Shown here: one piece after another, positions 21,634 to 36,473 of the stretch
Layout: every line of letters starts with the position of its first letter
Numbering within the stretch: the first letter of the stretch is position 1
Assembly (NCBI GenBank): GCA_041581135.1
Contig: JBFGCM010000001.1
Location: forward strand, 32,389 to 96,388
Direction: 5' to 3'
DNA length: 64,000 bases
From: Acidimicrobiia bacterium
Lineage (GTDB): Bacteria; Actinomycetota; Acidimicrobiia; Spongiisociales; UBA5794
Notes under the pieces: model-generated
The model's database searches: none
Told to the model about the DNA's origin: nothing
Seen by the model: only the letters and a program-made list of their open reading frames with translations
Program-made: the position numbers and the translations under genes

Positions 21634-22365
21634 TCAGCGGCGGATCCGCAGCCGGCGCCGGAGTCGCTGCCACCGGGCCCGTCGCCCCGAGGGGAGGCCG
21701 GTCGAGCCCGGTGGTGGCGGTTGTGGCAGGACCCCGGGCGATGCTCCGATGTCGGCGGCCGGTAGGGCCTCATCTCGGGTATCTCCGGCGTCTTCGTCGG
21801 ACGTGGGGATGTCGGCGGAGGGCGCGTCAGGCGCCGATGGTGGGGTGGAAACGACCTCGGGCGTGATAGGCCGGCGAAGGGTGCTGAGCTGCTCGCGGAG
21901 GAACTGCACCTCCGTCTCCGCCTTGGCTGCTCGCTCCCGAGCCTCGGCGAGCTGTTGCCCTGCCTCGTGCAGGTTCCCAAGCTGGGTGAGCATGCGCTCC
22001 CACGCGTCGAGGGGGACGATCATCGTGCCTGGTGGGGGAGTGCCGGCCACGTCGTCGACGGGAGCGGTTGGGATTCGGCCCAGGCGCTCACCTCGGCTGC
22101 GGACCTCTGCCAGGGACACCATCCAGCGCCCGTCGATCACCTGGCCCGGGATCTTGCCCTTGCGAGCCCACGTGCGCACCGTGGACATCGGGATGCCGGT
22201 GGCCTCGTGGGCCTGTCGAATCGTCACCCACGTCGCCGGCGATGGGCTTCGGGTCGGTCCTTCGGTGGCACGCGCCGGAGGAGGCGGCGGCGGTACTGCC
22301 CGGCGGTGGCGCGCCAGCGTTTCGGCCTCCCAAACCAGTCCCGGGTCCCTCTCCACGTTCGGCAT
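21634..22365 (-). CDS. Helix-turn-helix (MerR/excisionase-type) DNA-binding protein with coiled-coil and Pro-rich tail
   Basis: The HTH is WVTIRQAHEATGIPMSTVRTWARKGKIPG. The gene is divergent from the BMC operon with a ~49-nt gap. Confidence 0.6.
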   Translation of the reverse strand: MPNVERDPGLVWEAETLARHRRAVPPPPPPARATEGPTRSPSPATWVTIRQAHEATGIPMSTVRTWARKGKIPGQVIDGRWMVSLAEVRSRGERLGRIPTAPVDDVAGTPPPGTMIVPLDAWERMLTQLGNLHEAGQQLAEARERAAKAETEVQFLREQLSTLRRPITPEVVSTPPSAPDAPSADIPTSDEDAGDTRDEALPAADIGASPGVLPQPPPPGSTGLPSGRRARWQRLRRRLRIRR

Positions 22366-22414: not shown

Positions 22415-23041
22415 TTGTGTGCACCAGTGACGCCTGAGCCAGTCGACATACCCCCGCCTGAGCCGTCGGAGGTGCGCGACCTGGTGCGGCGCATCGTCGA
22501 CGGGCTCTTGCAGGACGAGGCCGCTGCCGTGACGTCACCGCCGGCGCCGGAGGCTGAGCATGTGTCATCTTCGGTCCCGGGTCGGCTGCGGGTGGCGATC
22601 GGAGCCGACCACGGTGGGTACGCGATGAAGGAGCACCTGGCGTTCCGGCTCAGGGAGCGGGGCCACGATGTCTCGGACTGCGGCACGCACTCGACCGACG
22701 CCGTCGACTATCCGGACGTTGCGCTCGCCGTCGCCGAGTTGGTGGTGAGCGGAACATGCGACGTCGGCATCGTCGTCGACGGTGCCGGGATCGGGTCGGC
22801 GATGGCAGCCAACAAGGTCCCGGGAGTCCGGGCCGCACTGTGTTACGACCTGTCGACGGCCCGCAACAGCCGCGAACACAACCACGCTAACGTCCTCACC
22901 CTGGGCGCCGGCCTCATCGGCAATGGGCTGGCATGGCAGATCGTCGACGAGTGGCTGTCGGTGCCGTGGGGGGAAGGGCGGCATGCCAGGCGAGTGGCGA
23001 AGATCAGCGACATCGAGCGACGGTATGGCGGCAATGGATAG
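22415..23041 (+). CDS. RpiB/LacAB-family sugar-phosphate isomerase with ~55-aa N-terminal extension (BMC cargo candidate)
   Basis: The core is [11 protein letters not shown]...[17 protein letters not shown]...REHNHANVL. The extension contains [18 protein letters not shown]. The start is uncertain (TTG at 22415 or GTG at 22427). Confidence 0.85.
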
Positions 23042-23888
23042 GGAACAGCTCATCGAGGCCGTCACGCGAGAGGTGCTGTCCGTGCTCGCCGGCGGGACCG
23101 ACCCCTGTGCCCACTGCGAGGGCAGTTGTGCCGCCCACAGCTCGGACCGGGTGCGCACGGTGGTTGCCAACGGCGCCGACCGGGTCTCGTTCAACGGCAA
23201 CGCCGCCGACGTTCCGCTCGACCTGGCCAGGTACATCGACCACACGTTGCTCAAGCCCGACGCCACCGCCTCTCAGATCGACAAGCTGTGCGCCGAAGCA
23301 GTCGAATACGGGTTCGCCTCGGTGTGCGTCAACCCCACCTGGATCCGCCGGGCCGCCTCCAAGGTGCGCGGCAGCGACGTGAAGGTGTGCTCGGTGATCG
23401 GGTTCCCGTTGGGGGCCACCACGCCGGAGATCAAGGCCATGGAGACCCGCAAGGCGCTCCGTGACGGGGCGCGGGAGATCGACATGGTCATCAACATCGG
23501 CGCCCTCAAGTCCGGCGACGCCGACCTCGTACGTGCGGACATCGCCAAGGTCGCCGAGGCGTCTCATGAGGTGGGTGCCATCACCAAGGTCATCATCGAG
23601 GCGGGTCTGCTCACCGACTACGAGAAGGTGCTGGCCTGCGCCCTCGCCAAGCAGGGCAAGGCCGACTACGTGAAGACCTCGACCGGCTTCGGGGCGGGTG
23701 GTGCCACCGTCTACGACGTGGCTTTGATGCGGGAAACCGTCGGACCCGAGATGGGCGTGAAGGCGTCAGGTGGCGTCCGCACCACCGAGGAGGCAGAGGA
23801 GATGATCGCCGCGGGAGCAACCCGCATCGGCGCTTCCGCGGGAATCAGCATCGTGAGCGGAGAAGGAGCCGGTGATGAGCGACATTGA
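23025..23888 (+). CDS. deoC: Deoxyribose-phosphate aldolase with N-terminal extension (BMC cargo candidate)
   Basis: The DeoC core is [19 protein letters not shown] and the Schiff-base Lys context YVKTSTGFG. The N-terminus is M(AAM)[20 protein letters not shown] followed by CAHCEGSC. An alternative ATG is at 23034. The gene overlaps the rpiB-like stop. Confidence 0.9.
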
Positions 23889-24504
23889 TCTCAGGAGCTA
23901 CGCGTTCCTGGACAGCCTGCAGCCCCAGTACGCGGCATTCCTCGGCACTGTCGCCCAGGGATTCCTCCCACTGGCCGGGGACGCCTCGTTGTACGTCGAG
24001 GTGGCGCCGGGCATCGAGATCAACCGGCTCACCGATGTCGCGCTGAAGTCCACCAAGGTCAAGCCCGGGATGCAGATCGTCGAGCGCTACTACGGCATGC
24101 TGGAGATCCACTCACCTGACCAGCACGAGACCCGCGCCGCCGGTGAAGCGATCCTCGAGGCCATCGGGAAGACCGAGCCCGACCGGCTCAAGCCGCGGAT
24201 CCTCTCCAGCCAGGTGATACGGCGGGTCGATGACCACCAGACGCAGCTCATCAACCGGGTCCGCCACGGCAACATGCTCATACCGGGACAGACCTTCTAC
24301 GTCTTGGAGTGCGAGCCGGCGGCGTACGCCCCCCTCGCCGCCAACGAGGCAGAGAAGGCGGCCGACATCAACGTGCTCGAGGTGCGCGCCTTCGGCTCGA
24401 TGGGGCGGGTCTACCTCGGCGGCGAGGAACGCGACATCGATGTGGGATGGCGTGCCGCCGTCGCCGCGCTGGAAGGGCTCGAAGGCCGCGAAGCCAGCAA
24501 GTGA
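23875..24504 (+). CDS. BMC-T shell protein, tandem permuted BMC domains (CcmP/CsoS1D-like, double-stacking type)
   Basis: [53 protein letters not shown]...[24 protein letters not shown]...AANEAEKAA closely parallels CcmP as I remember it. Confidence 0.85.
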
Positions 24505-24547
24505 ACGACGAGAATCCACCAGAACGAGAGACAAAGGAGAAGCGTCA

Positions 24548-24850
24548 ATGGCAGAAGCCCTTGGGATGATCGAGACCCGCGGCTTCGCTGCGATGGTCGA
24601 GGCGTCCGATGCCATGGTCAAGGCAGCGAAGGTGGAGCTGGTCTCCTACGAGAAGACCGGCGGTGGGTATGTCACCTCGGTCGTCCGTGGCGATGTGGCA
24701 GCCGTCAAGGCGGCGGTCGACGCCGGCATTCGCAGCGCAGAGAAGGTGGGCGAGGTCATCTCCAGCCACGTCATCGCTCGGCCGCATCTCAACATCGACC
24801 TGGTGCTGCCACTGGGGCGGGCCGACGAGGCCCAAGCCGAGCTCGGCTAG
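24548..24850 (+). CDS. BMC-H hexameric shell protein (PduA/CcmK type)
   Basis: [57 protein letters not shown] is a canonical BMC domain. AAGGAG precedes the ATG. Confidence 0.95.
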
Positions 24851-24864
24851 ACGGACACCACGCC

Positions 24865-25152
24865 GTGCATCTGGGACGTGTCGCCGGCACGCTGGTTGCG
24901 AGCCGCAAAGACCCTCACATGGAGGGGATGACCTTTCTCGTCCTTCGCCAGTTGGACGTGGCCGCCGAGGAGACCGGCGGCTACGTGGTCGCGGTCGATG
25001 CCGTGGGAGCCGGTGTCGGAGAGGTGGTGATGTACGCCTCCGGTAGCTCGGCGCGCCAGACGGTGCTCACCAAGGACCGCCCGTGCGACGCGGTGATCAT
25101 GGCCATCGTGGACACGTGGGAGGTCGACGGGGACGAGGTCTACCGCAAGTGA
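24865..25152 (+). CDS. BMC-P pentameric vertex protein (EutN/CcmL family), copy 1
   Basis: (M)[30 protein letters not shown]...[14 protein letters not shown]...AIVD. The start is GTG. Confidence 0.9.
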
Positions 25153-26609
25153 AGATCGACGACCAGGAGATCCAAGCGATCATCGAGCGGGTCCGCAGCC
25201 GGCTCGGTGATGCCGAGGGGTCCTTGCGGCCCGCAGCCACCATGCGCGCCCAGTCACAGGTGGCGGCGTCGGCGGTGGAGTACGGCGACGGCATCCATCG
25301 GACGGTGGATGCTGCGGTGGCCGCCGCCGCCAGGGCGTTCGTCCACTACCGCGAAATGGGGTTGGAGAAGCGGCGCGAGATCATCGAATCCATCCGGCGC
25401 TCCATGTCCGACCACGGGGAGCAGCTGGCCTACATGGCTCACGCCGAGACCGGTCTGGGACGGCCGGAGGACAAGGCCGTGAAGAACCGGTTGGTGACCA
25501 CCAAGACCCCCGGACCCGAGGACCTGGAGCCTCAGGCCGTGACTGGAGATTCCGGGATGATGGTCACCGAGTTCGCCCCCTATGGCGTGATCGCGGCCAT
25601 CACGCCCACCACGAACCCCACGTCGACGATCATCAACAACACCATCGCCATCCTCTCGGCCGGCAACGCAGTCGTCTTCAACGTGCACCCCAATGCCAAG
25701 AGCGTGTCCGCCGAGAACGTGCGCCTGCTGAACCGAGCGATCGTCGCCGCCGGCGGGCCTGAGGATCTCGTAACGGCGATTCCCGACCCCACCATCGACA
25801 GCGCCAAGGCGGTGATGCACCATCCCGATGTGCGCCTGTTGCTCGTGACGGGTGGCCCCGGGGTGGTTCGCGAGGCGCTGAACACCGACAAGAAGGTGAT
25901 CGCCGCCGGGCCGGGCAATCCGCCGGCCGTGGTGGACCAGACCGCCGATGTGGAGCAAGCGGGTCGCGACATCGTGCGGGGCGCCTCGTTCGACAACAAC
26001 GTCATCTGCACCGACGAGAAGACCACGATCGCCGTCGATACGGTTGCCGACCGTCTCGTCCAGTCGATGGCGGCCAACGGCGGGTACCGCTTGAAGGAAC
26101 ACGAGATCAAGAAGCTGGAGCGCGTCATCTTCCGTGAGCTGGGCCCACCCAACAAGCCGGGGATGATCAACCCGGCCTGGATCGGCAAGAACGCCGGGGC
26201 GATCCTCGCCGAGATCGGCATCCAGGTGGACCGCGACGTGCGCCTCCTCATCGCCGAGGTGCCGGTGGAGCACAACCTGGTGTGGACCGAACAGATGATG
26301 CCGGTGATGCCGGTGGCCCGAGTCCAGAACGTGGACGACGCCATCTCGCTGGCGGTCCGCTCCGAACACGGATTCCGTCACACGGCCTCCATCCACTCGA
26401 CGAACGTCGACACCATCACCCGCATGGCGCGAGCCATGAACTGCTCGATCTTCGTGGCCAATGCTCCCAACTACGCCGGGCTCGGCGAGGGTGGTGAGGG
26501 CTTCACGTCGTTCTCCATCGCCAGCCCGACCGGTGAGGGACTCACCCGCCCGCGCTCGTTCTCCCGAGTGCGGCGCGTCTCGGTGGTTGGCGCCCTCCGG
26601 ATCGTGTAG
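25149..26609 (+). CDS. CoA-acylating aldehyde dehydrogenase (PduP/EutE-like) with N-terminal encapsulation-peptide-like helix
   Basis: GTG at 25149 overlaps the upstream stop (GTGA). The N-terminus is [20 protein letters not shown]. The core has [15 protein letters not shown], the catalytic Cys context [11 protein letters not shown], and [11 protein letters not shown]. Confidence 0.9.
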
Positions 26610-27205
26610 TGCCGCACCCGGCCGTCGCCCTGCTCGAGTTCTCGTCCGTAGCCCACGGCATCGCGGCGGGGGACGCCATGGTGAAGGCGGCCCCGGTCGG
26701 TGCGATCCACGCCGGGTCCGTCCAACCCGGGAAGTACCTCGTGCTGGTGGCCGGAGACACCGCCAGCGTGGCGACCGCCGTCGAGGCCGGGCAGGCGACG
26801 TCGGCGAGTGCCCACCTGGCGACGGTCTTCCTCCCGGACATTCACCCCGATGTCTCTGCTGCCATCAGGGGGAGCAGGGCCGACCCTGACGGAGAAGCAC
26901 TCGGCATCGTGGAGACGACCACCGTGAGCGACGCCATCGCCGCCGCCGACGCAGGGGTGAAGGGCGCTGCGGTCGTGCTTCACGCCATTCGCATGGCGGA
27001 CGGTCTCGGCGGCAAGGGGTATGCGTTGTTCGCCGGGCCGGTCGCCGAGGTGGAAGCCGCCATCGAGATCGGATCGGCCCGAGTGGCGCCCGATGTGCTC
27101 ATCGGCGCGGTGGTCGTGCCGCAGCTCCATGCCGAGATGGCCGCCAACGTGTGGACTGAGCCCCGCTTTCGCCGAGTCGTGGCGAGCCCGGACGAAGTCT
27201 CCTGA
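26609..27205 (+). CDS. BMC-T shell protein, tandem canonical BMC domains (PduT-like), no cysteines
   Basis: Two BMC domains are present: VALLEFSSVAHGIAAGDAMVKAAPV... and ALGIVETTTVSDAIAAADAGVKGAAV.... The start overlaps the AldDH stop by 1 nt. Confidence 0.85.
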   Translation: MPHPAVALLEFSSVAHGIAAGDAMVKAAPVGAIHAGSVQPGKYLVLVAGDTASVATAVEAGQATSASAHLATVFLPDIHPDVSAAIRGSRADPDGEALGIVETTTVSDAIAAADAGVKGAAVVLHAIRMADGLGGKGYALFAGPVAEVEAAIEIGSARVAPDVLIGAVVVPQLHAEMAANVWTEPRFRRVVASPDEVS

Positions 27206-27495
27206 TGCAGCTGGGACGCGTCACCGGGACGGTGGTGGCCACCGTGAAGACCCCCGGACTCGAAGGAGTCCGCTTCCTGGTGGTGCAACCCCTGGACCGC
27301 CGACGTCAGCCCTCCGGGGAAGCGGTGGTGGCGGCCGACGCGGTGCACATGGCCGGCCGAGGTGAGCTCGTGTACTTCGTGTCCTCCCGCGAGGCGGCCC
27401 AGGCGATGCCCGACACCTTCGTCCCGGTGGATCATGCCATCGTCGGCATCGTCGACGCCATCGAGTCCTCCGGTCACGGAGCAGAGCCGCTGTGA
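27205..27495 (+). CDS. BMC-P pentameric vertex protein (EutN/CcmL family), copy 2
   Basis: MQLGRVTGTVVATVKTPGLEGVRFLVVQPLD...AADAV...AIVGIVD. The ATG overlaps the upstream TGA. Confidence 0.9.
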   Translation: MQLGRVTGTVVATVKTPGLEGVRFLVVQPLDRRRQPSGEAVVAADAVHMAGRGELVYFVSSREAAQAMPDTFVPVDHAIVGIVDAIESSGHGAEPL

Positions 27496-27520
27496 GCCCG
27501 GTGCTATGGGGTGGCGGCCG

Positions 27521-27790
27521 ATGAAGGTGGCCCGGGTCGCCGGCACCGTGGTCTCCACCATCAAGGCGCCCGTGTTCGAAGCGCGCACACTCTTGTTGTG
27601 CGACCTGCTCGATGCTGACGGGGTTGCCGCCGGGTACGTCATCGCCCTCGACCTGGTGGGCGCCGGAGCGGGCGAGACCGTGCTCGTGCTGGACGAGGGC
27701 AGCTCGGCCCGCCAGCTGCTCGGCATGGAGGTGGCGCCCGTGCGCGCCGTCATCGTGGCCATTGTCGATCACGTCGAAGGCATGGGGTGA
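27521..27790 (+). CDS. BMC-P pentameric vertex protein (EutN/CcmL family), copy 3
   Basis: MKVARVAGTVVSTIKAPVFEARTLLLCDLLD...ALDLVGAGAGETVLV...AIVD. An alternative ATG is at 27506. Confidence 0.85.
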   Translation: MKVARVAGTVVSTIKAPVFEARTLLLCDLLDADGVAAGYVIALDLVGAGAGETVLVLDEGSSARQLLGMEVAPVRAVIVAIVDHVEGMG

Positions 27791-35416: not shown

Positions 35417-35866
35417 TCACATTCTGTTCTGCTCGAGATCCAGCACCTTGTCCAAGCGCCGCTGATGACGCTCCTCGCCGGTGAAGGACGCCTTCACGAA
35501 CGAGGACACGATCTCGCGAGCCAGCTCCGAGCCGATCACCCGGCTGCCCACGGCGATCACATTGGCGTCGTCGTGTTCCACGGCCTGGTGTGCGGTGTAG
35601 GTGTCGTGGGCGACGGCGGCGCGGATGCCGGTGAGCTTGTTGGCCGCGATGGAGGCGCCGGCTCCCGAACCACACACGACGATGCCACGATCGGCACGTC
35701 CGGACACCACGGCCCTGCCGACTGCGGCGGCGTAGTCGGGGTAGTCGACGGGGTCTGTCGATGTGGTGCCCAGGTCGATCACGGCGACACCCTCCGCCGC
35801 GAGATGCTCCTTCAGATCCTCTTTCAGCTCGAAGCCGGCGTGATCCGCTCCGATGGCAACTCGCAC
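35417..35866 (-). CDS. rpiB: Ribose-5-phosphate isomerase B (housekeeping copy)
   Basis: GTG at 35866 is preceded by GGGAGGA. Contains [12 protein letters not shown] and GIVVCGSGAGASIAANK, which retains the catalytic Cys. There is no N-terminal extension. Confidence 0.9.
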   Translation of the reverse strand: MRVAIGADHAGFELKEDLKEHLAAEGVAVIDLGTTSTDPVDYPDYAAAVGRAVVSGRADRGIVVCGSGAGASIAANKLTGIRAAVAHDTYTAHQAVEHDDANVIAVGSRVIGSELAREIVSSFVKASFTGEERHQRRLDKVLDLEQNRM

Positions 35867-35966
35867 TGATCCTCCCGTCGAGGGATTGGCCGCGTTCGAT
35901 GGCCAGGGTAACCGCATGCGGGGCGTCGCCAGCGCTTCGCAGCAGCGGCCCGTGGCTAGCCTCCAC

Positions 35967-36473
35967 ATGGTGCGTCGCTTCCTCGTCCTGCTGCTGGGTT
36001 TCGCCGTTGCATGCAGCTCCGGCGTCACCGCGCCTCCCGTCGGAGAGCTGGCCACGGTGTGCGCCGATCAGTTCTGCGTGTCCTATCCCGACGACTGGGA
36101 CGCGGAACCCGGCGAGACGTTCGTGACCTTCTCCCATCCGTCGGATCCCGTGACGGTGGTGGCCTCGGCCAGCGGCGTCGACATGGCCGGTGTCATGCGG
36201 GCCGGCGGAGAGCCGTGGCCGGCGCCACCCGACAGAGTGGTGCGCACGTTCTGGCGCCTCTTGGACGAGGGAGGCTCGGCCGGACTTGGCGACATCGAGA
36301 CCCGTGACGATGGGTCCGTGGCATCGGAGGGAAGCTTCGATTCCGGGCGCCTGTGGACCCGCATGATCCCGGTGGAGGGTCCCGATGCCGTCGGCATCGA
36401 GGTGCGGGCACCGAATGGCTCATGGGCAGACCACGCCGCCGCGTTCCTCGACGGCTTCACCATCCTCCCATGA
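35967..36473 (+). CDS. Lipoprotein, unknown function
   Basis: Trimmed to MVRRFLVLLLGFAVAC|SSG. Confidence 0.6.
   Translation: MVRRFLVLLLGFAVACSSGVTAPPVGELATVCADQFCVSYPDDWDAEPGETFVTFSHPSDPVTVVASASGVDMAGVMRAGGEPWPAPPDRVVRTFWRLLDEGGSAGLGDIETRDDGSVASEGSFDSGRLWTRMIPVEGPDAVGIEVRAPNGSWADHAAAFLDGFTILP

Follow-up and report, generated by a model that had tools for sequence, protein, structure and literature searches.

Conserved N-terminal helices on the three enzymes of an SPU3-type microcompartment operon from an Acidimicrobiia bacterium

A 64-kb stretch of the genome of an Acidimicrobiia bacterium (contig JBFGCM010000001.1; referred to here as the window, in whose numbering all positions are given) contains a tightly packed operon of nine genes on the forward strand (22427–27790), each with matches in Pfam and the Protein Data Bank (PDB). 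The genes encode, in order, an RpiB-like protein (RPI), deoxyribose-5-phosphate aldolase (DERA), BMC-Tdp, BMC-H, BMC-P, an aldehyde dehydrogenase (AldDH), BMC-Ts and two further BMC-P proteins, where BMC denotes bacterial microcompartment (Table 1). Judged by its gene content, the locus is a complete operon of the sugar-phosphate-utilising (SPU) type SPU3 from an Acidimicrobiia-like actinobacterium, and an ordinary further example of that type. All three enzymes possess an N-terminal extension with a conserved amphipathic helix of the kind found in encapsulation peptides (EPs). EPs are amphipathic helices of 15–20 residues, carried on a poorly conserved linker, that direct cargo into microcompartment shells (Kinney 2012; Aussignargues 2015, PMC4594438).

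The extensions were compared across 80 syntenic loci of other genomes, mostly of Acidimicrobiia and Chloroflexota, with some of Gaiellales, Thermoleophilia and others. Enzyme cores were placed in these loci by tblastn and the upstream sequence was read in frame to the preceding stop; genes cut by a contig end were left out of the helix count for RPI. AlphaFold2 (AF2) models, which cover RPI and DERA, were computed from a 28-sequence alignment.

Table 1 Features of the operon, its enzyme extensions and two further genes of the window. pLDDT, predicted local distance difference test score; μH, hydrophobic moment of a 14-residue core on the Fauchere-Pliska scale; HTH, helix-turn-helix; aa, amino acids.
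Feature	Position	Strand	Evidence or remark
Putative regulator, divergent HTH (HTH_17/MerR-like), directly upstream of the operon	21634..22188	-	weak Pfam HTH_17 and MerR matches
RpiB-like protein (SPU RPI), 204 aa	22427..23041	+	PF02502, E 3e-52
RPI encapsulation-peptide helix	22463..22522	+	AF2 helix, residues 13-32, pLDDT 74-85; μH 0.64
RPI Pro/Ala/Ser-rich disordered linker	22523..22588	+	pLDDT <50
DERA (DeoC), 284 aa from ATG 23034	23034..23888	+	PF01791
DERA N-terminal helix	23040..23087	+	AF2 helix, residues 6-21 of the 287-aa form, pLDDT ~55; μH 0.52
DERA Cys-rich motif C-x2-C-x3-C-x2-H, residues 25-35	23106..23138	+	between the helix and the conserved second block
DERA extension, conserved second block	23145..23198	+	column conservation 60-90%, equal to the helix
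BMC-T(dp), CcmP-like double-stacking trimer, 210 aa, tandem BMC	23875..24504	+	PDB 4ht5/5lsr CcmP, E 5e-84; Pfam CsoS1D_N
BMC-H hexamer protein, called 100 aa	24548..24850	+	PF00936, E 3e-30
BMC-P pentamer protein 1	24865..25152	+	PF03319, E 1e-27
AldDH, CoA-acylating (PduP/EutE-like), 486 aa from GTG 25149	25149..26609	+	PF00171; best PDB 5jfl, E 2e-130
AldDH encapsulation-peptide helix	25158..25205	+	motif conservation; μH 0.54
AldDH linker	25209..25283	+	20-28 aa across loci, Ala-rich (30%), semi-conserved
BMC-T(s), PduT-like, 198 aa, tandem BMC, without pore cysteine	26609..27205	+	PDB 3n79 PduT, E 7e-31
BMC-P pentamer protein 2	27205..27495	+	PF03319, E 2e-26
BMC-P pentamer protein 3, called 89 aa	27521..27790	+	PF03319, E 3e-21
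Housekeeping rpiB, without extension	35417..35866	-	50% identity with the core of the BMC RPI; catalytic Cys kept (VVCGSGAG)

N-terminal helices of the three enzymes

The RPI gene was called from GTG 22427, which has an AGGAG sequence 12 nt upstream; TTG 22415 is an alternative start, and the LacAB_rpiB domain begins at residue 60 of the resulting 208-residue open reading frame (ORF). Within the extension, AF2 predicts a helix followed by a disordered linker, in agreement with a preliminary description of this DNA, made from the sequence alone, that had proposed a helix and a Pro/Ala/Ser-rich linker. The helix motif is present in 75 of 75 loci, with the consensus P-S-E-x-E-V-R-x-L-V-x-R-[VI]-V-[DA]-G-[VL]. 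The linker, by contrast, varies from 13 to 48 residues across the loci, cannot be aligned and is composed largely of Ala (21%), Pro (18%), Gly (11%) and Ser (11%). The extension is covered by all of the top 120 listed database homologues. With its conserved helix and unconserved linker, RPI carries a textbook canonical EP.

The AldDH gene starts at GTG 25149, within a GTGA overlap with the stop codon of the preceding BMC-P gene. The Aldedh domain begins at approximately residues 48–50, and the alignment to the solved BMC AldDH 5jfl begins at residue 29, such that residues 29–48, which belong to the linker, have a counterpart in that structure. The helix motif was found in 74 of 74 loci (consensus L-[STD]-[ED]-x-E-I-Q-x-I-I-E-R-V-[RK]-x-R-[VL]), and the length range of the linker includes the 25 or so residues first proposed for it. 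The protein ends in VGALRIV, without a C-terminal peptide. The AldDH extension, a helix and a linker, is classed as a canonical EP, its semi-conserved linker agreeing with the definition in part.

The DERA gene is read here from ATG 23034, in overlap with the stop codon of RPI (ATGGATAG), whereas the gene caller took ATG 23025, giving a form of 287 residues. Homologues begin with M-[DN]-R-x-x-L-I-E. The helix motif R-[ED]-x-L-[IV]-E-A-[VI]-T-R-E-V-L-A-A-L is present in 80 of the 81 genes in the loci, and the T, E, V and L of the helix are invariant in 28 homologues. As with RPI, the top 120 listed database homologues of DERA all cover the extension. Translation confirmed the three peptides at 22466–22519, 23034–23096 and 25149–25208, as the preliminary description had placed them, apart from a trivial shift of one codon in the AldDH string that it quoted. 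Counted from the starts, the catalytic domains set in after about 55–62 residues in RPI and DERA and after about 48 in AldDH.

Amphipathicity and shared register

An amphipathic helix, part of the definition of an EP, is indicated in RPI and DERA by the AF2 models and in all three enzymes by the hydrophobic moments of the 14-residue cores. Against a background of 3,408 14-mers from the proteins of the window, these moments lie at the 99.9th (RPI), 98.8th (DERA) and 99.3rd (AldDH) percentiles, values that are optimistic because the cores were picked after the sequences had been seen. On the 18-residue Eisenberg moment the RPI helix alone is exceptional, so that the amphipathicity claimed for all three peptides holds for the cores of each but, on the longer measure, for RPI only. 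The validated PduP peptide itself reaches only the 56th percentile on the Eisenberg measure, which is therefore a weak discriminator. The hydrophobic moment alone discriminates weakly, and the argument for the helices is carried by the conservation data.

The core moments of the three helices fall in the range of those of PduP, PduD and EutC, for which we used the sequences that we take to be theirs. With the PduP and EutC sequences so assumed, the AldDH helix has its hydrophobic positions (3, 6, 7, 10 and 14) in the same register as these peptides. The PduP version fits the residue numbering in PMC12339742.

In a profile–profile comparison, the helices of RPI and AldDH fall into a common register, E-Φ-x-x-Φ-Φ-x-R-Φ (Φ, hydrophobic). 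Their score was 17.6, where the null distribution gave 1.7 ± 3.9, and none of 2,000 column permutations reached 17.6 (p < 0.0005). For the DERA helix, the match to these two profiles is weak (p = 0.02 and 0.07). The hydrophobic pattern first described as common to all three peptides is therefore firm for RPI and AldDH and loose for DERA.

Hidden Markov models (HMMs) of the three helices, built from the other loci with the window sequence left out, were run on the entire window translated in six frames. Each matched only its own site (E = 7e-9, 1e-9 and 6e-13), and no further EP-bearing protein was found with them in the 64 kb.

The N-terminal module of DERA

The DeoC domain of DERA begins at approximately residues 62–67. 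The extension preceding it is a module of about 60 residues, comprising the helix, a short variable hinge, an optional CxxCxxxCxxH motif and a conserved block. The full Cys motif is present in 42 of the 80 loci, with a fourth Cys in many of the Chloroflexota versions, and a deletion of about nine residues leaves none or one of the Cys residues in 32 of the 80; a metal-binding or redox function of the motif is possible. In the second block, the 28 aligned homologues all share V43, R44, G50, A51 and R53. AF2 confidence is low across the remainder of the extension, where the second element is modelled as a low-confidence helix. A phmmer search with the 62-residue extension against 1.84 billion representative proteins returned 41 matches, essentially all of them N-termini of DERA fragments, and none of the 41 belonged to another enzyme family.

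Since the distal block is as conserved as the helix, the DERA extension fits the definition of an EP only in part. The preliminary description had treated all three peptides as targeting peptides of about 20 residues, which is upheld for RPI and AldDH; for DERA it is superseded by the longer module with its conserved distal block.

These features lend some weight to a different reading, in which the DERA extension is a small folded module serving assembly, regulation or stability, possibly with a metal or redox site at CxxCxxxCxx(H/C), and DERA enters the shell by piggy-backing on RPI. Such a module would account for the strong conservation of the distal block in place of a loose linker, for the Cys/His motif in roughly half of the loci, for the restriction of the sequence to DERA N-termini in the protein database and for the weak match of its helix to the RPI and AldDH profiles. 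Some SPU1 DERA extensions have likewise been reported as sequences that 'do not resemble EPs' (Sutter 2021, PMC8217296), and RPI forms a stable complex with a DERA truncated at the N terminus, the full-length DERA being insoluble (Dwyer 2024, PMC11585597). However, the helix of DERA is both amphipathic and strongly conserved, the Cys motif can be dispensed with, as the loci with the deletion indicate, and the aggregation seen with full-length DERA is typical of EPs. Moreover, SPU5 loci lack RPI and yet keep the DERA extension (PMC11585597). The folded-module reading is, on balance, unlikely.

Translation and conservation of the extensions

The helices could be annotation artefacts, the true starts lying downstream (for example, at GTG 22562 in RPI) and the mature enzymes lacking the peptides. 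The RPI start offers some grounds for this, being a non-ATG codon with a long spacing of 12 nt to its AGGAG, and the in-frame GTG 22562 has a good Shine–Dalgarno sequence. Nevertheless, every plausible start codon of RPI, DERA and AldDH precedes the helix, as does an ATG, by a few codons, in most homologues, and translation of DERA and AldDH is coupled at the start codon to the stop of the gene before. Nucleotide diversity at codon positions 1, 2 and 3 is 0.35, 0.27 and 0.60 in the RPI helix, 0.27, 0.10 and 0.49 in the DERA helix, and 0.29, 0.24 and 0.47 in the AldDH helix. This order, with the third position highest and the second lowest, is the pattern that purifying selection on the encoded peptides leaves, and helix motifs conserved across phyla are accompanied by variation biased towards synonymous changes. 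The GC content at third codon positions (GC3) of the extensions is 0.80–0.90, and the extensions by themselves, scanned against Pfam at E ≤ 10, yielded sub-threshold noise only (DUF5351, DUF7576 and TraC).

In the RPI linker, GGAGG stands 8 nt before GTG 22562 (22549–22564), an arrangement that could yield an RPI isoform without the EP. A Shine–Dalgarno sequence with a start codon occurs within the linker in just 4 of 74 related loci, and GTG 22562 is therefore probably coincidental.

A second alternative is that the amphipathic pattern arose by chance in proteins rich in Ala, Leu, Val and Arg, as encoded by a genome of 68% GC. Measured over 18 residues on the Eisenberg scale, the DERA and AldDH helices are indeed unexceptional, and shuffled sequences often reach their moments (p = 0.42 and 0.32, respectively). 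Against chance stand the position-specific conservation over 74–80 loci, which is far above compositional expectation, the lack of conservation in the flanking linkers of the same genomes, and the consistent placement of the helices at the N-termini of BMC-encoded enzymes only.

Motif conservation, the codon pattern, the HMM matches and the coverage by homologues together therefore exclude mis-called starts and chance. Downstream starts, very improbable on these comparative data, are effectively refuted by them, and chance, which is harder still to credit, is refuted by the conservation data. The proviso attached to the preliminary description, that downstream starts would overturn it, thus leaves its proposal of translated extensions standing.

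The extensions are confined to the microcompartment enzymes, as had been proposed. Solved DERA structures (220–230 residues) align to residues 62–279 only and lack the extension. For AldDH, the available comparators are truncated or of the BMC type and thus form a weaker control. The housekeeping rpiB gene of the window, put forward as an internal control, has a GGGAGG Shine–Dalgarno sequence 5 nt before its start at GTG 35866. Its ORF, called mechanically, runs 63 codons further upstream (35867–36055, reverse strand), and in that stretch the GC content at second codon positions is 0.76, compared with 0.46 in the gene body. Given this non-coding GC pattern and the strong Shine–Dalgarno sequence at GTG 35866, the longer ORF is spurious, a product of high GC content, and the internal control holds.

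The same DNA is present in NCBI assembly GCA_041611855.1, where the gene-caller products are 204 (RPI), 287 (DERA) and 486 (AldDH) residues long; all three extensions are therefore already annotated there.

Active-site substitution in RPI

In RPI the catalytic Cys is replaced by Asp (Asp118, codon 22778–22780, within VVDGAGIGS), which is invariant in 28 homologues, as is the REHNHANV motif in the RPI homologues. The exchange of Cys for Asp with retention of the His is the pattern of SPU-type RPIs. In the survey of Dwyer and colleagues, the catalytic Cys (E. coli RpiB Cys66) is replaced by Asp in all SPU RPIs, and the RPI of an SPU6 locus was inactive on ribose-5-phosphate and formed complexes with DERA (PMC11585597). 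The substitution seen here agrees with the reported inactivity, and the residues at this site suggest that RPI may be a DERA partner or an adaptor.

Shell proteins and microcompartment type

AldDH, a pfam01791 protein and a pfam02502 protein are the sole enzymes of the operon, with pfam02502 upstream of pfam01791, and the shell comprises a single BMC-H, a triplet of BMC-P proteins, a CcmP-like BMC-Tdp and a BMC-Ts that lacks a pore cysteine and is not accompanied by PduS. The gene set and order are kept in 65–80 of the 80 related loci, and conservation among these loci is limited to the nine genes of the operon. The same enzymes in the same order and the same complement of shell proteins define SPU3 (PMC8217296), a type that has been reported from Actinobacteria and Chloroflexi, as here. 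In some SPU3 loci RPI and DERA are fused, whereas here they are separate genes.

The PduT-like BMC-T reads SVQPGKY, with Gln at the position of the pore Cys that serves as an Fe–S cluster ligand in PduT, the PduT sequence used for this comparison being the one that we take as reference. The Gln fits the absence of PduS and is consistent with a structural or pore role of this protein. No PduS, PTAC or alcohol dehydrogenase gene was found within ±10 kb of the operon or in the conserved synteny of the related loci, in keeping with the description of SPU3. The operon therefore encodes no means of recycling NAD+ and CoA for an enclosed AldDH. It has been suggested in the literature that acetyl-CoA and cofactors cross the gated CcmP-like BMC-T.

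A homologue of the divergent HTH_17/MerR-like gene upstream of the operon is present in 31 of the 80 related loci. This putative regulator differs from that of the SPU6 model locus, which is of the GntR/UTRA type.

Comparison with known systems

EPs on SPU enzymes are documented. Sutter et al. 2021 (Nat Commun, PMC8217296, Supplementary Data 2) list N-terminal EPs on the AldDH and pfam01791 proteins of SPU3. Dwyer, Sutter & Kerfeld 2024 (Commun Biol, PMC11585597) describe an N-terminal helix-plus-strands extension on all SPU DERAs, a typical N-terminal EP with linker on SPU RPIs, and an N-terminal EP on SPU AldDHs except those of SPU6. A 2025 preprint has extended SPU-like compartments and EPs to Asgard archaea.

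The present locus resembles the SPU6 locus of Chloroflexi bacterium GWB2_54_36 (PMC11585597) in that DERA has a helix and a further structured element, and it resembles the SPU proteins of that survey in the helix and disordered linker of RPI and in the Cys-to-Asp exchange. It differs in several details. The second element of the DERA extension is modelled as a low-confidence helix here, as opposed to two β-strands in PMC11585597, and the RPI linker has approximately 27 residues (13–48 in the clade) as opposed to approximately 75. The extensions were included by the gene callers here, whereas automated annotation often truncates SPU extensions according to PMC11585597. No EP is listed on the pfam02502 protein of SPU3 in PMC8217296; in this locus one is present, as it is throughout the related loci in which RPI could be scored.

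The enzymes of the Salmonella PDU and EUT compartments, PduP, PduD and EutC (PMC4594438, PMC12339742), likewise begin with an amphipathic helix of approximately 18 residues followed by a linker. In PduP, an apolar face and a Glu–Arg salt bridge (key residues E7, I10 and R11) lead to self-association of the EP and condensation of cargo (2025 study, PMC12339742). Conserved acidic and Arg residues similarly flank the apolar face of the helices described here. However, the SPU helices have no detectable sequence homology to PduP, PduD or EutC, and their conserved Arg stands one position later relative to the Φ-Φ pair than in PduP-type peptides.

The occurrence of EPs on SPU3 enzymes is thus already known, and the Cys motif and the shared register are minor additions. 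No mention was found of the optional DERA Cys motif in the main text of PMC11585597 or in PMC8217296, nor of the shared RPI/AldDH register in the cited SPU literature. As EPs on SPU DERA, RPI and AldDH were published in 2021 and 2024, the finding is a correct rediscovery and introduces no new principle.

Proposed function and significance

Taken together, sequence conservation, structure prediction and analogy with characterized compartments suggest that all three enzymes are lumen cargo loaded through their N-terminal helices, to which we assign a probability of roughly 0.85. By the chemistry proposed for SPU compartments, DERA would cleave deoxyribose-5-phosphate into glyceraldehyde-3-phosphate plus acetaldehyde, and AldDH would convert the acetaldehyde to acetyl-CoA (PMC11585597). 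EPs appear to bind a hydrophobic groove between tessellating shell tiles. As in the PDU and EUT compartments, the apolar faces of the helices would drive self-association of the cargo into a condensed core, and, facing the lumen, hydrophobic grooves where shell tiles adjoin would offer docking sites for the helices. The steps from DERA through acetaldehyde and AldDH to acetyl-CoA would thereby be kept enclosed. The RPI-like protein would probably enter as DERA's partner, in the manner reported for the pair from SPU6, and not as a ribose-5-phosphate isomerase.

Several observations weigh against loading of all three enzymes in this manner. On the 18-residue Eisenberg measure, the DERA and AldDH helices lie only at the 68th and 83rd percentiles, the better figures coming from cores that were selected post hoc. 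None of the helix HMMs detects either of the other two helices at E < 1; the helices are three separate conserved families. The DERA helix is modelled with a pLDDT of only ~55, and its extension has a conserved block after the helix where the definition of an EP calls for a poorly conserved linker. In the cited SPU literature, no SPU EP is reported to target cargo to a shell, and the present locus is known from sequence alone.

A more far-reaching scheme is also conceivable, in which the Cys module of DERA binds metal or tunes condensation or encapsulation through redox, RPI and AldDH share a docking code, and the disabled RPI is an EP-bearing adaptor for DERA; as extrapolated from the motifs, it is unlikely, slightly more so than the folded-module reading of the DERA extension.

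The preferred reading, loading of all three enzymes through their helices, is of value mainly in that the EPs were recognisable to a reader of the sequence alone. The helix consensus over approximately 75 loci, the RPI/AldDH register and the optional DERA Cys motif are increments that may guide targeting experiments. Knowledge of cargo-loading peptides is useful for the engineering of minimal shells, and the nine-gene operon is compact. SPU compartments are among the most widespread types of BMC, and their proposed role is the salvage of deoxyribose-5-phosphate from the breakdown of DNA.

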